A program made the translations under genes and the position numbers. This document shows, piece after piece, positions 1-6,137 of a stretch of 6,302 nucleotides of DNA (position 1 is its first letter; every line of letters starts with the position of its first letter). The stretch covers positions 1-6,302 of the IMG/VR virus record IMGVR_UViG_3300020030_000124; one strand, 5' to 3'. The notes under the pieces were generated by a model. That model was not told where the DNA came from and did no database searches. It was given only the letters and a program-made list of their open reading frames with translations. The stretch is from a virus.

Positions 1-121
1 AGATACCAAAAGAATCGTTCAACCTCTTGTGCTTGACCTTATCTTGACATTTCGTCAATGCCACAGCGGCCAAACGACGAACAAGAGGAAGAGTATGATA
101 TTCGGGTTCCGCTTTCTTACC
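1..121. repeat. Terminal redundancy, copy 1. Identical to 6182..6302, marking a circular 6181-nt genome.
   Basis: Base-by-base comparison of 1..121 with 6182..6302 shows 121/121 identity in direct orientation. The repeat lies inside the Rep reading frame, as expected for a circular contig linearised with overlap. Confidence 0.97.
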
Positions 122-1693
122 ATAATCAATCCTATTATAACGGAAGGAATAATTACGAAGCTCAAAATCAACCAAGTCCTTATCGTCAGAATCCTCAAGA
201 GTCTGATAAAAATCAACAAGGCGATTGTAGTCATAACGATTCCAAAAGGACACTATTTTTTCCGAGAGAATTCGGAGAGTTCGTTCTCTGCACGCAAAGC
301 AGCCGGCATATCGTTCGGGTTCGGGATAGAAGTTTGCTCCAAGTTCATCATAGTACGTCCGAAAGAATTTAGACATCGAGAGAAAGAATCGATAGCAGCG
401 GGATAAGCGAAAAACCGGGTCCAAATTAACACCGTCATAAAGACGACATTCAGACAAAATGAGAACATCGCTATGCGGTAGATTCTCTTTAGGCGAAAGA
501 ACATTTCGTTCATCATTTGTTTTTCCATAATTGTCTACATAATTTAAATATTGCTTACAAAAAGATAACATACTCTGTTTAGAAAGAGGATTGGGATTAA
601 AAGGATCCAATGCTAAATCACCGCATCCGCTACAAATGACTCGTTCGGGCGCCGTGAATGCAGAATATAATAACTGGTAAACACTCGATGGAAGTTTACG
701 AACAGGGTCCGAAAATCGGGGGAATAATCGAAGGAGATACGGCCACGAAGGCTTAACTGTGCGAAAATATCCATCGCGAACAATGCGGACTCCATTAAGG
801 CAATTATCGGCAACTTCGTCAATTTCGGCAATTCGTACCTTTCGAGGAAAGAGATTTGATTCTGTAAATCCAATGGAATGGAAGGATTTAGGTCGCACCA
901 CTTTTGGCATCTGAGTATAAAAGTCGGGTAAAGCGACAAAACTGTTAACATACGACGCAACATACGGAGCTGCGAATCCTCGCGACAATGACGCATCACA
1001 ACGTCCGTAAGACCAAGCCTTAGATACATTTTCACAAACAGTTTGCGAAAATCTTTCGGAATCGGAAAACAATAACAAATGCCAATGCGGGCGGAAACTG
1101 GTAGGGCCGTATTCTGATACAGCGTAGTAACGTAATTTTTCATCCGGGTAGTAACTTCTTAAACGTTTTAAAAATAAATCTAGATCACGATTACAGATAT
1201 AGGGAATCCTATTCGGAACATCATGCTTAACCTTTCCAAGAATAGACAAAAAATCCTTAGGCTTCATAGGATAAGAAAACTGAACTTCGGGATCCTTAAA
1301 AGTACGCTCAACAGTAGAATTCTTCAACCTAACAGAGGCAGAGCGAGGAACGCTACGAAAACCAAACAGATAAATATTAGTGTCACAAGCATCCAACTCA
1401 TTAATGTCGGGAACACAGGGTACATCCGCAATATCATCCGTACAAGCTTCAATAACTGAAACCTCCAAAGTAGGAAGGAAACAAGGAGCATAAGTAAGAG
1501 TAACAAAATAAACATAACGGAACTGGGCAGAATAAGTAGTGAGGAGGTTTGTCTGAATACCGGAACGACGAAGAATACAAGAAGGACAAGAACCGCAAGA
1601 AACAAGAACGGGTTCATGCGTATATTTATTAACAACCGTACGAGGGTTCTGACAACGAGTCACTAACTTATTCTGCAATTCCTTTGTAATCAT
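1..1693 (-). CDS. VP4: Replication initiation protein (HUH/rolling-circle endonuclease, Microviridae VP4 / phiX174 gpA-like). These are the N-terminal 564 codons. The frame stays open across the window edge and continues at 6181..6165.
   Basis: Hand translation from the ATG at 1693..1691 gives an uninterrupted frame down to base 1. The product starts MITKELQNKLVTRCQNPRTVVNKYTHEPVLVSCGSCPSC. It carries RCR motif I FVTLTY (aa 63-68), HUH motif II HWHLLLF (aa 203-209) and double-Tyr motif III YVASYVN (aa 244-250; compare phiX174 gpA YVAKYVN). It is absent from the ORF track because no stop lies inside the window on this side. Full length is 569 aa after joining with 6165..6181. Confidence 0.93.
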   Translation of the reverse strand, partial: MITKELQNKLVTRCQNPRTVVNKYTHEPVLVSCGSCPSCILRRSGIQTNLLTTYSAQFRYVYFVTLTYAPCFLPTLEVSVIEACTDDIADVPCVPDINELDACDTNIYLFGFRSVPRSASVRLKNSTVERTFKDPEVQFSYPMKPKDFLSILGKVKHDVPNRIPYICNRDLDLFLKRLRSYYPDEKLRYYAVSEYGPTSFRPHWHLLLFSDSERFSQTVCENVSKAWSYGRCDASLSRGFAAPYVASYVNSFVALPDFYTQMPKVVRPKSFHSIGFTESNLFPRKVRIAEIDEVADNCLNGVRIVRDGYFRTVKPSWPYLLRLFPRFSDPVRKLPSSVYQLLYSAFTAPERVICSGCGDLALDPFNPNPLSKQSMLSFCKQYLNYVDNYGKTNDERNVLSPKENLPHSDVLILSECRLYDGVNLDPVFRLSRCYRFFLSMSKFFRTYYDELGANFYPEPERYAGCFACRERTLRILSEKIVSFWNRYDYNRLVDFYQTLEDSDDKDLVDFELRNYSFRYNRIDYGKKAEPEYHTLPLVRRLAAVALTKCQDKVKHKRLNDSFGI

Positions 1694-1998
1694 TTTCTAT
1701 CAGTAAAATTAAGTTTCATCTGGCGAGGTTTGCGACCACGAGCAAAAGAAACATGAACAAATGTGCGATATTTTATAAGCTGATCAAATGCAAAAGAAGA
1801 CTTCTCAATCAACGAAATAAAATCATCTACAGAAAGACCGGAAGGCTTCAAGTCAACAGCATCACCAGTCAAATGCTGCGAATTGGCAGATCCATTACAA
1901 GCATCGTTCTGTTCCCTAGTACGAAAAGCAGAAGTAACAGTGAAATGAACATTCCAACGCAGAAGCCATTCGACGAATTTCATCAACTCTGGATTCAT
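1690..1998 (-). CDS. Minimal zinc D-Ala-D-Ala carboxypeptidase-like cell-wall peptidase (Peptidase_M15_3 / M15A-like), 102 aa. Putative lysin.
   Basis: The ORF-track protein contains TSAFRTREQN (compare family SGYRxxxxN). It also has SQH42-LTGDAV-D49 (SxHxxGxAxD, an H-x6-D zinc-ligand pair) and FVH82V (third ligand, family consensus fvHvD). The ATG is at 1998..1996. The TGA at 1692..1690 overlaps the Rep ATG as ATGA. Confidence 0.8.
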   Translation of the reverse strand: MNPELMKFVEWLLRWNVHFTVTSAFRTREQNDACNGSANSQHLTGDAVDLKPSGLSVDDFISLIEKSSFAFDQLIKYRTFVHVSFARGRKPRQMKLNFTDRK

Positions 1999-2001
1999 GA
2001 C

Positions 2002-2091
2002 TTACGAAAATATTTGAGCAATAGACGTAAGGAGACTAACAGCAGCCGCAATAACTGCAGCCCAGATCTTGGACTTAGTTTCATTTTTCAT
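2002..2091 (-). CDS. 29-aa ORF resembling a Sec signal peptide or single-pass membrane peptide. It is in frame with the downstream M15 peptidase.
   Basis: Hand translation from ATG 2091..2089 gives MKNETKSKIWAAVIAAAVSLLTSIAQIFS, with TAA at 2004..2002. It has a charged n-region, an ~18-residue hydrophobic core and an S-I-A/Q motif fitting the -3/-1 rule. 14 of 28 codons end in T, matching the bias of the confirmed genes. It falls below the size cut-off of the ORF track. Confidence 0.45.
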   Translation of the reverse strand: MKNETKSKIWAAVIAAAVSLLTSIAQIFS

Positions 2092-2254
2092 CGGGAATAG
2101 CTTTAAAAGTTGAACAAGAAGAAACAAGAAGGACACAGTCCGGAGTTATGTAAGAAGAGACAAACTGGGAAATGTCCTCAACAGGTACAAGAACGGTTTC
2201 GTTCTGGTTGGGATTCATCCTTGACTGAATAGAACACAAATAATACTTTTCCAT
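2081..2254 (-). CDS. Hypothetical small protein, 57 aa.
   Basis: An internal ATG at 2254..2252 of the track ORF 2081..2461 gives MEKYYLCSIQSRMNPNQNETVLVPVEDISQFVSSYITPDCVLLVSSCSTFKAIPDEK. 27 of 57 codons end in T, like the confirmed genes. The start lies ~40 nt downstream of the candidate -7 box. The 3' end overlaps the next ORF by 11 nt. No family recognised. Confidence 0.35.
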   Translation of the reverse strand: MEKYYLCSIQSRMNPNQNETVLVPVEDISQFVSSYITPDCVLLVSSCSTFKAIPDEK

Positions 2255-2295
2255 AAAACTAAAATTTAAATTATACATTGATTTTAAAGACAGTA

Positions 2296-2328
2296 CAAAG
2301 ATATAAATAAAATTTTGAGAGAACCAAA
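2296..2328 (-). promoter_or_regulatory. Candidate Bacteroides-type promoter (-33 TTTG, -7 TAnnTTTG) driving the minus-strand gene train.
   Basis: The minus strand reads TTTG (2328..2325), then a 21-nt spacer, then TATCTTTG (2303..2296). It sits in a ~22% GC stretch just upstream of the first small ORF. Motif match only. Confidence 0.35.
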
Positions 2329-2365
2329 CAAAACAGTGTATTATTAACATAAATAAACAGTAAGT

Positions 2366-2380
2366 TGGACGGGTGGACGG
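2366..2380. repeat. Short tandem direct repeat TGGACGG-g-TGGACGG, followed by a partial third TGG. Iteron-like; function unknown.
   Basis: Read directly: tggacgg at 2366..2372, g at 2373, tggacgg at 2374..2380, then tgg at 2381..2383. It lies in non-coding DNA between the AT-rich promoter region and the large hairpin. Confidence 0.6.
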
Positions 2381-2614: not shown

Positions 2615-2656
2615 AGGTGTATAACCACGCTACGCGCGGTTGCCGGAAGTTACTCC

Positions 2657-2693
2657 AAACAGCAAAACCCGACGCGCATCACTGCGAGCCGGG
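2657..2693 (-). terminator. Intrinsic-terminator-like hairpin plus T-tract, downstream of VP2.
   Basis: The minus strand reads CCCGGCTCGC-AGTGAT-GCGCGTCGGG (2693..2668). That is 9 pairs including one G-U, plus one mismatch. It is followed by TTTTGCTGTTT (2667..2657) and starts 24 nt after the VP2 TAG stop. Confidence 0.5.
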
Positions 2694-2716: not shown

Positions 2717-3784
2717 CTACCAGGGCAGAAAGTTACCTACAGTATTACCGATAGAGGTGCCATAATGAACAGCCTTATCAGCGTCATAATACTTATGCCT
2801 TTTCTTCTCATTTCTGGAACGATACCATTCTTCAATATTCTTACTGCGAGCATTATCACGGGAAAGACCAAGCTTAAATTCCTCATCATAATAAGCCGCA
2901 GAAGACTGACTAGCGGCAATATTAGCCGCAATTTGAGACTCAGCAATACGAGAAGCAACATGATTTGAAATATGCTGTCCACGAGCACGGGCAGCAGCCA
3001 AGGCTTCCTCTGCGATAGCTTTTTTAGCTTCAGCATACGAAAGATAACCAGCCGACATACGCTGATAGTAATCCGCAGCCTTAACATTCAGATCAAGCTG
3101 CTGCTGCTGGTCAAGATATTTATTCATAATACCTTTAGCTTCATTATCAAGAAGCATACCAGAGTGCTGAGCCTTCATAACATTGCCAGTCATTGCCATG
3201 TTATTCACTTCCTGCTGCTCCCTTGCATAACCAAGCTGGGCACGAGCCAAACCAGTAGATTTCAAATAACTACGGGTTTCATCAGTAAGTTTTCCCCAAT
3301 CAATATTAGAAAGAACTTCCATAGCCTTAGCATCAGCAAGCTGCTTAGCGCCTTGCAAATTAGACTTTTGAGACTGCATAAGCTCGTACTGAAAAATGTT
3401 ACCGATAGAACTTGATATACCGGAGTAATCAGCCTGGAAAGGCTGCATGACAGCAGGACCGGCAGACTGGGCAGAAGAACCAGGACCGGCAGACTGGGCA
3501 ATACCGGCGGAACCGCCGTTCATCATCAAATAAGGATTCAAACCAGCTTCTTCAAGACGTTGACGTTGCGCGGATGCAGTATTATATGCATTTTCCTTAT
3601 TCCACATATTTTCCTGAAAATCGCGCTGCTGCATTGCCATACGCTCGTTGAACTGGTTATTCATCTGATTTATCTTATAGTTCATCTGGTTGGTCTCCCG
3701 GACATTCTGTCTATTCTGTGAATTCTGAATTGCAGAAGTACCAATGCCAAAAAGACCACCAGCGATTGAACCAAGAAGACCCAT
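2717..3784 (-). CDS. VP2: Minor capsid / DNA pilot protein (Microviridae VP2-like), 355 aa.
   Basis: The N-terminus is glycine-rich and hydrophobic (MGLLGSIAGGLFGIGTSAIQ). Q/N-rich coiled-coil-like regions follow (NQMNYKINQMNNQFNERMAMQQRDFQENMW...RQRLEEAGLNPYLMM). Position and size are typical of Bacteroidota-type microvirus VP2. The ATG at 3784 shares one base with the upstream stop (TAATG). Confidence 0.82.
   Translation of the reverse strand: MGLLGSIAGGLFGIGTSAIQNSQNRQNVRETNQMNYKINQMNNQFNERMAMQQRDFQENMWNKENAYNTASAQRQRLEEAGLNPYLMMNGGSAGIAQSAGPGSSAQSAGPAVMQPFQADYSGISSSIGNIFQYELMQSQKSNLQGAKQLADAKAMEVLSNIDWGKLTDETRSYLKSTGLARAQLGYAREQQEVNNMAMTGNVMKAQHSGMLLDNEAKGIMNKYLDQQQQLDLNVKAADYYQRMSAGYLSYAEAKKAIAEEALAAARARGQHISNHVASRIAESQIAANIAASQSSAAYYDEEFKLGLSRDNARSKNIEEWYRSRNEKKRHKYYDADKAVHYGTSIGNTVGNFLPW
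3454..3500. repeat. In-frame tandem duplication inside VP2: a perfect 20-nt repeat at 27-nt period.
   Basis: caggaccggcagactgggca occurs at 3454..3473 and again at 3481..3500. This encodes AQSAGP-GSS-AQSAGP in the Gly/Ser/Ala linker of VP2. Confidence 0.9.
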
Positions 3785-4266
3785 TATTCAGAGGAAGCGA
3801 CATCGGCGGAAGCAGCAGCCGCCTTTTCTGCCTCTTGTTTAGCAGTTTCAGCATCAATCAATTCCTGTGCCTGGGACTCAAGATTTTCAGCATAAGCAGA
3901 CAACTCCTTAGACCAGGCAATAATCTCAGAAGGAGTCTGGACATGCCGAGAGCGAACCGTCGCCAAAAGGTCATCGTCAGACATGCCGTCCATAATCTGC
4001 TGAATCTGGGAAGCAGACTGTTTACTCTGTCCAAACTTGGAAGCAACAGCAAGACCGGCACGGGAAGCCAAGTCCTTGGTATGAAGAAGCAAACGGATAT
4101 CAGAAGTATAACGCACCGGACAAGATTCTTCATTATCGTAAATTTCAACACGAAGCTGTTCGGTAGAATCAAATTCGGGAGCAACTGCAAAAGCATCCGG
4201 AGAAACATCGGGAACAAGACCGGAACCTTGTTCCAGACTGTTCAAACAATTAAATTTTCCAATCAT
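3784..4266 (-). CDS. Hypothetical protein, 160 aa from the ATG (162 aa if the TTG at 4272 is used). Possible internal scaffolding (VP3-like) protein.
   Basis: The ORF sits tightly between VP1 (8 to 14 nt gap) and VP2 (1-nt overlap). Its C-terminal tail is acidic and Ala-rich (ELIDAETAKQEAEKAAAASADVASSE). The track start at 4272 is a TTG; the first ATG is at 4266..4264. The functional call rests on position and size only. Confidence 0.6.
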   Translation of the reverse strand: MIGKFNCLNSLEQGSGLVPDVSPDAFAVAPEFDSTEQLRVEIYDNEESCPVRYTSDIRLLLHTKDLASRAGLAVASKFGQSKQSASQIQQIMDGMSDDDLLATVRSRHVQTPSEIIAWSKELSAYAENLESQAQELIDAETAKQEAEKAAAASADVASSE

Positions 4267-4280
4267 AATCAAAACAATAT

Positions 4281-6137
4281 TTAATAGGGAACACCATCAC
4301 GAGACAAATTTCGGGCAACATAGCAACCGATATAAGAGTTGACCAGCAACTGGTCAGTATCCCAAGTAGAATCAGCCTTGACACCAAAAATAGGATCAAG
4401 AACAGAAGGGTTAACCTTAAAGAACTTATAATTCAAAGCAACCTTAGTATTAGAATCGGGGGTAGAACCGCCGAATTGTGCCCAACCGGAAATTAAAGAC
4501 TCAGAAACCGGAGAAACCCAAGATTTCAAAGTAGTGGTAAACGCTCCATTAATGACATCAAGCTTAGTCTTCCAGTTGAAATAACGAGGATTATAACCTG
4601 CATTAAACAAATTAAAAGCAGTAGCAAGTGCAGAATTGAAAATCTGTGTCATAGGAAGGACTTCCATACCGATATTATCGAATTCCGGAATCGGGAGAGA
4701 CTCAGCATCAGTAACAAGCAGCTGACCATCCTGTCCGGTAATAGTATAGTCAAGCAAAGGAACGGCATGATAAATACACATAACGACACAATGTTCATCA
4801 GTAGTATAAGAGAAAGAACCGTTTCCTGCGCCGACACCTTTACCGGCAATAACGGCAGTATCACCTTCACCAGCAAGGTTATTGTTCACAACCTCACTGA
4901 TATCAAGGTTACGGGAGATACCACCGATATAAGTACACATATTGGAAAGAGCCTGGGGCAAGTTCACGCCAAAGTGCTTGCGGATCTGTTCACGATAGTC
5001 GGAATCGCCGGACTGAGAAATTTCTTTCCAACGTTGAAGGGCTTCGGCCTGGCGAAGGGCAAGAACCGAAAATTGGGACTGCAAAGCAGACAAATCAGAA
5101 ACCAAAGGAGACTTGATACCAATAGCAGAACCGGAAGGAATATTAAGAGTAGTCAAACTAGTAGAGCTGTTATTAGTAGCCAAGAGAGTATTCGAAACCG
5201 CAGAAATGAATTTACCGTCAGTAGTTCTAAAACCGGCCTTCAAATCGCCACCGGGCGGATCAAGATTGACTACAGCAACATCTCCAAACTGAGAATTCGG
5301 GAGAACGCCCATAAGCATATCCTTGTTCCAGTTACAGTACTTGAGGTCAAACATTGTGTCAGATTTCCAATAATCATCAGACTCCGAAGGAATAGAATCA
5401 AAAGGGATGAAAGCGGGAGAAACACCAGAAAAATAATCAACATTATAAGAAGCAGGATTAGCATTTTCCCATTGAGACCAACGGAAAAAATCCTGGTAAA
5501 TCTTCTGATAGGCAAGAATCGGAAAAACGTTTACATAATTATTCTGAATATACTGCTGAGAAAAACTTGATGAATCATCACTATTCTTTAAAGAAGTAGA
5601 CCACCAACGACTACCAGGAGTAGGAACAGAAGACACAAAGTTTCCATAACCAAGATAAGACAAAAGTTTAAAAGACAAATCTCCTCTGAAAAAACCAAAC
5701 AAATTTTTTGAACCAGAAGAATTTCCAGGATTCGGAGAAGTTCCATTAAGCCGATAAGGGAAATAGAATAAAGAAGATAAAGGCAAAGACGGAAGATAAG
5801 TACCCAAAGACAAATTCTGAGTCAAAGACAACGCTTGAATCTGATTGATATCCTGCATCTGAGTCAACACGGAAGGAGCGGACTTCCAGAGAAGACGCAA
5901 CGGCACAGCATAGAAGTCAAAGTACTCACGCAAACGGGTATAAGCAGAAGTTTCAACAGGCTGAGTACGGGTAAAATACTCAACATTGAACTTGTACTTA
6001 TCACCAGGCATAGAAATATCCCAGTAAACGGGGAGAAGCTCACCAATTTTCGCAGTAAACGCATTTTTACGTCCAATATCAAATCCAGAACGGTGAGGGC
6101 GGTTCTGAAGATTGGACATTCCGGTGTAAGAAGCCAT
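4281..6137 (-). CDS. VP1: Major capsid protein (Microviridae VP1 / phiX174 F-like jelly-roll), 618 aa.
   Basis: The N-terminus reads MASYTGMSNLQNRPHRSGFDIGRKNAFTAKIGELLPVYWDISMPGDKYKFNVEYFTRTQPVETSAYTRLREYFDFYAVPLRLLWK. This is the characteristic microvirus capsid start (conserved G-L-P...P-D...R-T-P...R...FFVP-R-LW pattern). The ~620 aa length fits the Alpavirinae-type capsid with large insertion loops. Confidence 0.96.
   Translation of the reverse strand: MASYTGMSNLQNRPHRSGFDIGRKNAFTAKIGELLPVYWDISMPGDKYKFNVEYFTRTQPVETSAYTRLREYFDFYAVPLRLLWKSAPSVLTQMQDINQIQALSLTQNLSLGTYLPSLPLSSLFYFPYRLNGTSPNPGNSSGSKNLFGFFRGDLSFKLLSYLGYGNFVSSVPTPGSRWWSTSLKNSDDSSSFSQQYIQNNYVNVFPILAYQKIYQDFFRWSQWENANPASYNVDYFSGVSPAFIPFDSIPSESDDYWKSDTMFDLKYCNWNKDMLMGVLPNSQFGDVAVVNLDPPGGDLKAGFRTTDGKFISAVSNTLLATNNSSTSLTTLNIPSGSAIGIKSPLVSDLSALQSQFSVLALRQAEALQRWKEISQSGDSDYREQIRKHFGVNLPQALSNMCTYIGGISRNLDISEVVNNNLAGEGDTAVIAGKGVGAGNGSFSYTTDEHCVVMCIYHAVPLLDYTITGQDGQLLVTDAESLPIPEFDNIGMEVLPMTQIFNSALATAFNLFNAGYNPRYFNWKTKLDVINGAFTTTLKSWVSPVSESLISGWAQFGGSTPDSNTKVALNYKFFKVNPSVLDPIFGVKADSTWDTDQLLVNSYIGCYVARNLSRDGVPY

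Follow-up and report, generated by a model that had tools for sequence, protein, structure and literature searches.

The S and R genes of phage lambda form the textbook holin-endolysin cassette. Phage 21 pairs a pinholin, S21 68, with the signal-arrest-release (SAR) endolysin R21, in which a weak helix is the covalent N-terminus of the enzyme. Protein E of phiX174, of 91 amino acids (aa), blocks MraY. The 29-aa TisB and the Hok/Gef peptides are type I toxins, chromosomal or plasmid-borne and controlled by antisense RNA, and such peptides can dissipate the proton-motive force. In levivirus M, the 37-aa LysM blocks MurJ (PMC12506998, bioRxiv 10.1101/2023.10.16.562596). For microviruses other than the phiX174 group, a putative peptidase endolysin has been listed, with no partner and no E homologue (PMC3394797, PMC3091885, PMC9239249). 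In the genomes considered here, lysis is the only essential function to which no gene has been assigned, and Alpavirinae have no other known lysis gene (PMC3091885, PMC3394797). We investigated a 29-codon open reading frame (ORF), hereafter the mini-ORF, that lies directly upstream of an M15 peptidase gene in the IMG/VR virus record IMGVR_UViG_3300020030_000124. The window, that is the whole stretch of DNA analysed, comprises 6302 nucleotides (nt) and, considering that the ORF of the replication initiator (Rep) is continuous across its ends, corresponds to a whole circular microvirus genome. The mini-ORF represents a conserved, so far unannotated gene family on microvirus-sized contigs, and is the best candidate for the missing lysis or membrane component of these viruses. 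It is not described in PMC3394797, PMC3091885, PMC9239249 or PMC13064476.

The mini-ORF and its predicted product

The mini-ORF (2002..2091, minus strand) starts with an ATG at 2091..2089, continues for 29 sense codons (MKNETKSKIWAAVIAAAVSLLTSIAQIFS) and ends with a TAA at 2004..2002. A single GTC codon (2001..1999) follows before the peptidase ATG (1998..1996), which is in the same frame. This is exactly the arrangement read in a preliminary description made from the sequence alone, and the gene is supported by its sequence, its conservation and its hydropathy. The GTC spacer on the minus strand (1999..2001) is a hypervariable spot in the relatives.

Residues 1-8 of the peptide (MKNETKSK) carry a net charge of +2, and residues 9-29 form a stretch of 21 uncharged residues. 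The mean Kyte-Doolittle (KD) hydropathy of the helix is 2.0 over 19 residues and its sum on the Hessa scale is about +1.4 kcal/mol, corresponding to a marginal to moderate hydrophobicity, with the small or polar residues A/S11, A12, A15, A16, S19, T22, S23, Q26 and S29 on one helix face. The product is predicted to consist of a basic N-terminus and one helix of about transmembrane length (20-21 residues), and in all lineages the peptide ends at the end of this helix or at most 4 residues beyond it. As hydrophobic ORFs abound in the alternative frames of the T-rich coding strand, a small hydrophobic ORF means little by itself, and it is conservation that decides.

The preliminary description had likened the peptide to a Sec-type leader, or to a signal-anchor, with an S-I-A/Q cleavage-like site. 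The basic n-region and the hydrophobic stretch stand, but the site is not conserved: relatives read SITQ, SIGQ, SISK or SLAQ at this position, and nothing similar is present in a lineage whose peptide has 27 aa. The h-region of about 7-15 residues followed by a small-X-small site, which defines a Sec signal, is not found either, the peptide having 21 uncharged residues and A, T, G or S as the -1 residue in the window clade.

Two other ORFs were considered and rejected. A longer version of 44 aa, starting with a GTG at 2136, has an extension that is the alternative frame of the preceding gene, ORF57, and that is not conserved among the predicted proteins; in the lineage with 32-aa peptides, a stop located five codons before the ATG interrupts the extension. 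Another 29-codon ORF in an alternative frame (1995..2084, minus strand, MKLSPRSGLQLLRLLLVSLRLLLKYFRKS) would encode a cationic, amphipathic, Leu/Arg-rich peptide, and its TGA overlaps the peptidase ATG. With a ratio of nonsynonymous to synonymous differences (pN/pS, pooled Nei-Gojobori method) of 1.8, and with truncations in relatives, it was discarded as a gene.

Conservation and selection

Among the relatives from IMG/VR and GenBank whose peptidase is 69-84% identical to that of the window, 30 of 31 carry an intact 29-codon ORF encoding an almost invariant peptide. In a second set, the mini-ORF is intact in 79 of 80 loci; the two sets overlap, and about 100 related genomes in all have an intact mini-ORF. 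The preliminary description had named the absence of a conserved ORF from relatives as a reason to abandon its proposals, and the contrary is observed. The single exception is the same contig in both sets (L021 = L095, IMGVR_UViG_3300045988_021117), which shows a nonsense mutation at codon 4 together with a 7-nt duplication and has an intact peptidase. In a further variant, P0021, the mini-ORF is frameshifted near its 3' end, also with an intact peptidase.

The pN/pS of the mini-ORF is 0.11, compared to 1.78 and 0.96 for the other two frames and to 0.28 for the peptidase in the same genomes; overall, values of 1-5 were obtained for the other frames. The variable sites, 9, 4 and 22 at the first, second and third codon positions, are mostly third positions. 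A pN/pS of 0.11 was also obtained for the 27-aa lineage, and in a lineage that has 32-33-aa peptides and lacks the peptidase (see below) the corresponding variable sites are 5, 0 and 16. Between the window and this peptidase-less lineage, 12 of the 19 core residues that can be aligned are identical, and the codons differ for 9 of these 12, e.g. Ser AGT/TCT and Leu CTC/TTG; identical residues reached through different codons indicate that selection acts on the protein. In the same comparison, the mini-peptide shows the best identity (59-67%), followed by VP1 (41-47%), the pilot protein (29-32%) and Rep (26-28%).

A filter for the architecture (24-40 aa, at least two K/R in the head, the last 20 residues uncharged, KD of at least 1.5) picked exactly the mini-ORF in each of the 11 genomes that contain a mini-ORF of this family or of the second family described below. 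It returned nothing in phiHBP1, a cultured Bacteroides fragilis microvirus, and one false positive in 74 kb in total. RNA structure was rejected as the cause of the conservation, the fold of 1980..2110 having z = +0.67. In addition, the pS of the mini-ORF (2005..2091) is 0.23, half of the 0.49 found for the adjacent peptidase (1693..1998) in the same genomes, and no stable RNA structure accounts for this difference (z = +0.67).

These data show that the mini-ORF is a real, separately terminated gene under protein-level selection. Coincidence, one of the possibilities raised in the preliminary description, does not apply to the ORF itself, which is conserved with a pN/pS of 0.11, but it does apply to the frame shared with the peptidase.

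The M15_3 peptidase

The peptidase gene (1690..1998, minus strand) encodes a leaderless protein of 102 aa, a putative endolysin, which matches Pfam PF08291, Peptidase_M15_3, with E 3.7e-13 (50 bits against a cutoff of 23.2) and PHROG 894, endolysin, with E 2.6e-18. The Zn ligands H42, D49 and H82 (H-x6-D ... H) are invariant in two peptidase alignments. The Pfam match is restricted to model positions 30-108, and the domain is therefore not full-length, lacking positions 1-29. The AlphaFold2 model is compact and confident, with a predicted local distance difference test score of 83.9; when it was compared with the PDB by Foldseek, the LAS endolysins LysB4 and Ply500, and VanY, were among the top matches with E 0.3-0.4, which is not significant. 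Taken as a whole, the sequence features point to a minimal LAS-type M15_3 domain and a putative endolysin.

The N-terminus of the peptidase contains no hydrophobic segment (maximum KD 0.6), in agreement with the earlier observation that the enzyme translated from ATG 1998 has no export signal. Its nearest cellular homologues, from Bacteroidales metagenome-assembled genomes (MAGs) and Parabacteroides, have 130-167 aa and no signal peptide; the comparison with the N-termini of bacterial M15_3 homologues, proposed in the preliminary description, thus revealed no leader on them. Cellular and prophage homologues carry 30-45 extra N-terminal residues, a soluble segment of the FKLSEF type, which is also found in the phiHBP1 homologue and is missing in that of the window. 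Just upstream of the leaderless M15_3 enzyme, in the holin position, four prophage cassettes of Bacteroidales (L048, L049, L058, L062) contain a separate ORF for a membrane protein of 65-163 aa. A scan of species-representative genomes yielded only peptidase homologues with 31-58% identity over the matched segments, mostly from Bacteroidales and alphaproteobacterial MAGs. We propose that the peptidase of the window's lineage was horizontally acquired and inserted right after the mini-ORF.

The junction between the mini-ORF and the peptidase

In the window and in 58 of 80 loci, the two ORFs are in frame with the stop and one codon between them. The preliminary description had asked whether this stop is kept in related genomes. 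It is present in all of the 31 loci, with interchange of TAA (26) and TAG (5), and it is kept in the approximately 100 related genomes. The spacer, counted from the mini-ORF stop, included, up to the peptidase ATG, measures 6, 12, 16, 18, 19, 21, 24, 35 or 58 nt. Indels that break the frame between the two ORFs, which the preliminary description regarded as evidence against its proposals, do exist, with spacers of 19 nt (L012, L104), 16 nt (L069), 35 nt (L112) and 58 nt (L073), and the peptide is unchanged in all of them. Tandem in-frame stops are also found, two in L007 and L018 and four in L017.

Tandem copies of the last codon and the stop (TCGTAA or CCGTAA) have a hot spot at this junction (L007, L012, L017, L018, L069, L104 and L108). 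They lead to 2-4 stops and to a variable spacing, which may tune translational coupling.

In the distant microviruses of the 27-aa lineage, whose peptidase is about 50% identical, the homologous ORF has 26-29 codons (MKSSNIWKIVIGAVSAALGYILNAIGL) and ends with a TGA that forms an ATGA with the start of the peptidase, the two ORFs being out of frame. Microvirus mar62 combines a window-like peptide (MKAETKSKLWAAIISALVSLLSNLANIL) with the ATGA overlap and links both forms. Fusion of the two proteins was tested by means of the stops, spacers and frames in about 110 loci and of the lengths of database homologues. The peptidase has 1697 database homologues, of which the best 120 are 97-105 aa long. 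Those of the mini-ORF form 266 clusters at 90% identity, of which the best 120 are 27-71 aa long, the greater lengths being due to the predicted start only, and lie on contigs of about 6 kb. No fused mini-ORF/peptidase protein was found among the best 120 of the 1697 peptidase homologues or the best 120 of the 266 mini-ORF homologues.

In GenBank, three Dulem viruses (226, 238 and 243; L035, L036 and L038) have a 124-aa coding sequence (CDS), 838..1212, named 'peptidase' or 'hypothetical', which starts at a wrong-frame upstream ATG and spans the mini-ORF. The true peptidase start in the same three records is ATG 901, which is overlapped by the mini-ORF TGA.

Considering the conserved stop, the tandem stops, the frame-breaking spacers, the ATGA overlap, the lack of a fusion among the best 120 homologues of either search and the leaderless homologues, read-through, sequencing error and a split leader are rejected. 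The preliminary description had considered a captured secreted peptidase whose leader was split off; the prophage homologues are leaderless, and the mini-ORF family is also present in peptidase-less microviruses. It had also considered that read-through or a sequencing error hides a SAR-like lysin of 133 aa, an idea that is contradicted by the ever-present stop, the out-of-frame spacers and the absence of fused proteins among the best 120 homologues of either search. The peptide is not a cleavable signal peptide of the Sec type, which forms the N-terminus of a longer protein, since its stop is conserved in about 100 genomes and no fused homologue was found among the best 120 of either search. 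The pair does not form a SAR endolysin either, in which a transmembrane domain (TMD) is joined to the muralytic domain: the peptidase starts with MNPELMKF and the helix is encoded on a separate ORF. The shared frame of the mini-ORF and the peptidase is incidental.

Occurrence of the peptide and of the peptidase

Using the peptide in tblastn, we found a clear homologue, MATAEKKNKIWSAIISAIVSLLTSLGTILVGQ, directly followed by Rep, in the rat microvirus ON840043, in which no M15 peptidase was detected by tblastn with five diverse queries. More genomes of this peptidase-less lineage, with peptides of 32-33 aa, were obtained with a degenerate DNA pattern, including complete circles of 6.3-6.5 kb, and an exact-protein look-up showed that the lineage also exists as prophages. 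The gene order is ORF72, mini-ORF, Rep, ORF81, VP1, scaffold, pilot, with no peptidase in any of these genomes. When peptides of the 27-aa class were looked up independently of the peptidase, the peptidase was the next gene in 6 of 6 human-gut contigs. The mini-ORF is adjacent and coupled to the peptidase in the clade of the window, in mar62 and in the 27-aa lineage, and its peptide family is also found in peptidase-less genomes. We consider the mini-peptide to be an older, peptidase-independent core gene of the Bacteroidota-type (Alpavirinae-like) microvirus clade, and not an appendage of the peptidase. This virus group is temperate, as seen from the prophages L046, L236 and L238.

In IMG/VR, no relatives were retrieved with the MG945328 and Dulem 264 lineage peptidases, and the bajarodmic 722 peptidase gave mostly contigs far larger than a microvirus genome. 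Small hydrophobic ORFs are also present in other peptidase lineages (L043 538..669, L044 546..659, L042 1354..1467). Those of Dipodfec UA23Rod_920 and bajarodmic 722 are strongly hydrophobic, have 37-43 aa and lie about 70-95 nt upstream of the peptidase, and in Dulem 264 a small hydrophobic ORF, MGPKTKEIIRFIITVITSVAAALGIM, lies downstream of it.

A second peptide family and database comparisons

A second family of peptides (MTKEKFNKIVNVVCALISAIGAAISTLLH), with the same architecture, adjoins unrelated M15 peptidases in porcine microviruses. Two of its genomes, MG945328 and MG945336, have a recombinant region around the peptidase in common despite a VP1 identity of 21% (Kirchberger et al., PMC9239249). 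Each of the two has an ORF of 29-30 codons (MTKEQLNKISNALCALISAVCAALSYFFS) that overlaps the peptidase gene at its 3' end and begins within the shared segment, which aligns over 766 nt with 76% identity. This ORF is the sole match to the architecture filter in each of the two genomes. Relatives of the second family were found in 13 porcine microvirus records. In the four genomes examined, the M15 peptidase is located upstream of the mini-ORF, directly or after an ORF of 45-47 aa, and these peptidases have 37-43% identity in three of the four and 72% in L240. The profile-profile comparison of the two peptide families gave a probability of 68% and E 4.7e-5, scores of a kind that transmembrane composition inflates; this result is suggestive, and the two families may be either homologous or convergent.

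Homologues of the mini-peptide are named 'hypothetical' in the databases or bear spurious membrane-protein labels. Below threshold, the peptide matched DUF6486 (E 0.011, 15.6 bits against a cutoff of 22.7) and Phage_r1t_holin (E 0.014, 13.7 bits against 26.9) in Pfam, and the holin phrog_443 (E 0.08) and an inovirus-type 'minor coat protein' (E 0.008) in PHROGs. In the 37.8-kb phage contig L234, the DNA pattern matched a gene for a 58-aa protein with two TMDs, starting KLWAAVIAAVITTVGG, that corresponds to the holin phrog_9987 (E 4e-7). By sequence inspection only, this holin cassette also contains a lipoprotein, a putative endolysin and a spanin-like protein. The mini-peptide seems to resemble the first TMD of the L234 holin, which we take as a lead only, the match having come from a peptide-derived pattern; a tblastn search with this holin against GenBank phages found nothing, so that the resemblance is an anecdote.

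Possible functions of the peptide

We tentatively favour, at slightly less than even confidence, a holin-like role in which the mini-peptide makes the membrane lesion and acts with the acquired endolysin in lysis. A role in lysis is favoured because this function has no assigned gene and the mini-peptide is the only conserved small membrane protein of these genomes. With 29 residues, the peptide is too short for co-translational targeting and would insert into the inner membrane post-translationally. An N-in orientation is predicted from its basic N-terminus by the positive-inside rule; the N-terminus would stay in the cytoplasm and the C-terminal helix, which has about 20 residues, many of them Ala, Ser or Thr, would span the membrane. 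The small-residue face suggests helix-helix packing, and the peptide might accumulate and oligomerise via S/A11, A15, S19, T22/S23 and Q26. The oligomers might then depolarise or breach the membrane, and the cytoplasmic peptidase would get to the murein.

The link to lysis is suggested by the leaderless peptidase, the ORFs in the holin position of prophages, the peptidase found in 6 of 6 contigs and the second family beside M15 peptidases. The sub-threshold holin matches are weak additions, to which the resemblance to a TMD of the L234 holin can be joined. Like a holin, the product is, on sequence prediction, a small phage membrane protein with at least one TMD (KD 2.0 over 19 residues). The preliminary description had also considered a separate small membrane-active partner of the peptidase, and this proposal survives in so far as the gene is separate; the peptide is not an appendage of the peptidase, and the holin-like role is presumptive.

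Several points weigh against a holin-like role. Complete genomes and prophages without peptidase retain the peptide, which is therefore independent of it, and a pure holin without a muralytic enzyme is not expected to lyse a Gram-negative cell. Conversely, no mini-ORF was detectable in phiHBP1, which has an M15 peptidase of 134 aa, and none was found near the peptidases of two gokushoviruses. With 27-33 aa the peptide is far smaller than described holins, the hydrophilic charged C-terminal domain of holins is not found in any lineage, and the sequence is very strongly conserved, whereas holins usually evolve fast. Against Pfam, PHROGs and the PDB sequences, no match of the mini-peptide reached threshold. 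All accessory genes of these genomes are located between the pilot gene and Rep, which makes adjacency weaker evidence than in a large genome, and in the four genomes examined the peptide of the second family is always just before Rep and does not abut the peptidase. Finally, the broken mini-ORFs beside an intact peptidase (L021 = L095; P0021) may correspond to defective genomes, to assembly errors or to a dispensable gene.

A wider formulation, doubtful but possible in our view, would make the 27-33-aa peptide the actual lysis protein of the Alpavirinae-like microviruses of the gut, its mode of action being that of a minimal holin or that of a 'protein antibiotic' directed against a conserved envelope-biogenesis protein of Bacteroidota; the M15 peptidase would be an optional booster, inserted beside it more than once. 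An autonomous single-gene lysis protein of the 'protein antibiotic' type, the helix of which binds and blocks a conserved membrane enzyme of the host in the supply or flipping of murein precursors, e.g. MraY or MurJ, is judged unlikely. Lysis would then occur via failed septal wall synthesis, and the M15 peptidase would be a later accessory that accelerates wall breakdown or brings it to completion. The retention of the peptide in peptidase-less genomes and prophages, and its top conservation among the proteins, which fits a helix constrained by a conserved host target, agree with this explanation equally well as with the holin-like role, perhaps better. The size and the single TMD resemble LysM, of 37 aa (PMC12506998), microviruses already own such a protein, E (PMC3394797), and Alpavirinae have no other known lysis gene (PMC3091885). 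The peptide would be the only lysis gene in the 32-33-aa lineage and not in the window, where the peptidase is present. However, a leaderless cytoplasmic endolysin would add little to such a mechanism, and still the peptidase has been fixed, and is kept under purifying selection, in hundreds of genomes; moreover, profile and sequence searches found no similarity to E, LysM or L, and there is no known target.

A membrane role other than lysis, such as the anchoring of Rep, replication or assembly, superinfection exclusion, or the modulation of host membrane proteins in lysogeny, would reduce the adjacency of the peptidase to an effect of genome compaction. It is in agreement with the position of the peptide immediately upstream of Rep in the peptidase-less lineage and in the second family, with the temperate character of the group, with the clustering of all accessory genes in the pilot-to-Rep interval and with the lysis of B. 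fragilis by phiHBP1, which lacks the peptide (PMC13064476). We nevertheless consider it improbable: positive evidence for any specific alternative is nil, lysis is the sole essential function still without a gene in these genomes, and three lineages have retained the coupling of the mini-ORF stop to the peptidase start.

Far less credit is given to a functionless peptide, i.e. a cis-acting upstream ORF whose translation only delivers ribosomes to the peptidase or Rep. In most genomes the stop and the start do overlap or lie a few nt apart, and no Shine-Dalgarno-like sequence precedes the downstream ATGs. But coupling needs no conserved amino acids, whereas the mini-ORF has a pN/pS of 0.11 and keeps its residues despite saturated synonymous change; spacers of 35 and 58 nt occur with an unchanged peptide, and we regard this explanation as very improbable. 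A hidden fusion, in which read-through or a sequencing error would give an exported or SAR-type endolysin of 133 aa, or in which the peptide would be a decayed leader, can draw on the in-frame arrangement with a stop and one codon in the window and 58 of 80 loci and on a helix rich in weakly hydrophobic residues like a SAR domain, but is practically negligible in view of a stop that is always there with TAA/TAG swaps, the tandem stops, the frame-breaking spacers, the ATGA sister lineages, the lack of a fused homologue in the best 120 of either search, the leaderless cellular homologues and the existence of the peptide without peptidase.

The lineages with peptide and peptidase, those with the peptide only and the cultured Bacteroides phage phiHBP1 with the peptidase only constitute natural contrasts, which make lysis in Alpavirinae directly testable. 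Should the peptide alone be lytic, this would point to a vulnerable envelope target in Bacteroidota, and should it be the lysis protein, it would be the smallest phage lysis protein known. In practical terms, the gene is missed or mis-annotated in GenBank, and several 'peptidase' CDSs are wrongly extended across it.

Genome and neighbouring genes

Every gene of the window is on the minus strand. The major capsid protein VP1 (4281..6137, Pfam Phage_F) is followed by the scaffold (3784..4272) and pilot (2717..3784) genes, and an AT-rich intergenic stretch lies between pilot and ORF57. ORF57 (2081..2254), conserved in the alignment of relatives, encodes a small soluble protein and is the first gene of a string composed of ORF57, the mini-ORF, the peptidase, where present, and Rep, in which stops and starts overlap or almost touch. 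Its stop is 8 nt past the mini-ORF ATG, giving an 11-nt overlap of the two ORFs, and the peptidase stop overlaps the Rep ATG (ATGA). Rep/VP4, the replication initiator (1..1693, Pfam REP_ORF2-G2P), wraps the window ends and has 565 aa on the circle. The ORF57 protein begins with MEKYYLCSIQS, is annotated as hypothetical in relatives and has no Pfam or PHROG match. Small ORFs like it are located before the mini-ORF in mar62, in the 27-aa lineage and in the 32-aa lineage, and before the peptidase in the case of phiHBP1.

A Bacteroides-type promoter pattern, TTTG-N21-TAnnTTTG, has a single match in the genome (2296..2328, minus strand), 42 nt upstream of the ORF57 ATG. One match against 0.35 expected, with at least one in 63 of 200 shuffles, is not significant by itself, and this site is a hint of a weak candidate promoter for the ORF57-to-Rep string.

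The nearest GenBank relatives, with about 81-83% nucleotide identity, are uncultured faecal microviruses, namely Dulem viruses 236 and 257 and bajarodmic viruses 410 and 1134. The mini-ORF is unannotated in all four of them, where an 82-nt gap is left between a 'hypothetical protein' and the 'peptidase'. Close relatives were found as prophages with the bacterial flanking genes gyrA, clpB, htpG and BatD, and the window VP1 has 41% identity with VP1 of the Bacteroides fragilis phage phiHBP1. From the flanking genes and the VP1 similarity, the host is likely a member of Bacteroidota and the affiliation likely Alpavirinae-like (see also PMC3091885, PMC9239249).

Homology between the window and the prophage copy L046 ends within 2267..2369 of the window, which places the attachment site there. 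The L046 prophage is flanked by a direct repeat, ATATTAAACAT(A/T)(A/C)T(A/G)CTGATATTGA, near 9470 and near 15850; this repeat would be compatible with a dif-like site and with integration by XerC/D, which has been proposed for Alpavirinae. A GC-rich stretch of 50 nt (2616..2665), located in the AT-rich intergenic region, is 96% identical to Dulem virus 262, which has no other nucleotide match to the window in megablast. It can fold as two hairpins, a fold that is not unusual (z = -0.99), and could be an origin or another cis element.

Comparison with known systems

With a Sec type I signal or anchor, the mini-peptide shares a basic n-region followed by a hydrophobic stretch. It differs in having no mature domain, its stop being conserved, in a length of 20-21 uncharged residues, which is that of an anchor, and in an A-X-A site that is not conserved. 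TisB and Hok are similar in size, in having one helix and in post-translational insertion, but there is no sequence relationship; the TisB helix is charged inside and that of the mini-peptide is not, and these toxins have no phage or endolysin context.

The single-gene lysis proteins E and LysM are, like the mini-peptide, tiny proteins with a single TMD in minimal phage genomes, and the mini-peptide is also present in genomes without a muralytic enzyme. It has no sequence similarity to them, it has its own reading frame, whereas E is overprinted, and it mostly co-occurs with an endolysin, an enzyme that phages with single-gene lysis do not have. As here, the helix in the pinholin/SAR system of phage 21 is weakly hydrophobic and contains many Ala, Ser, Thr and Gly residues, and small depolarising lesions are conceivable for the mini-peptide as well; in contrast, the mini-peptide is separate from a peptidase that has no membrane segment, and a pinhole would not pass the 12-kDa enzyme.

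The holin-endolysin cassettes of the prophages L048, L049, L058 and L062 differ from this locus in the size of the membrane protein (65-163 aa compared to 27-33 aa for the mini-peptide), and the mini-peptide has one helix and no charged tail, is highly conserved and also occurs endolysin-free. What the two have in common is a small membrane gene located upstream of, and coupled to, a leaderless M15_3 enzyme.

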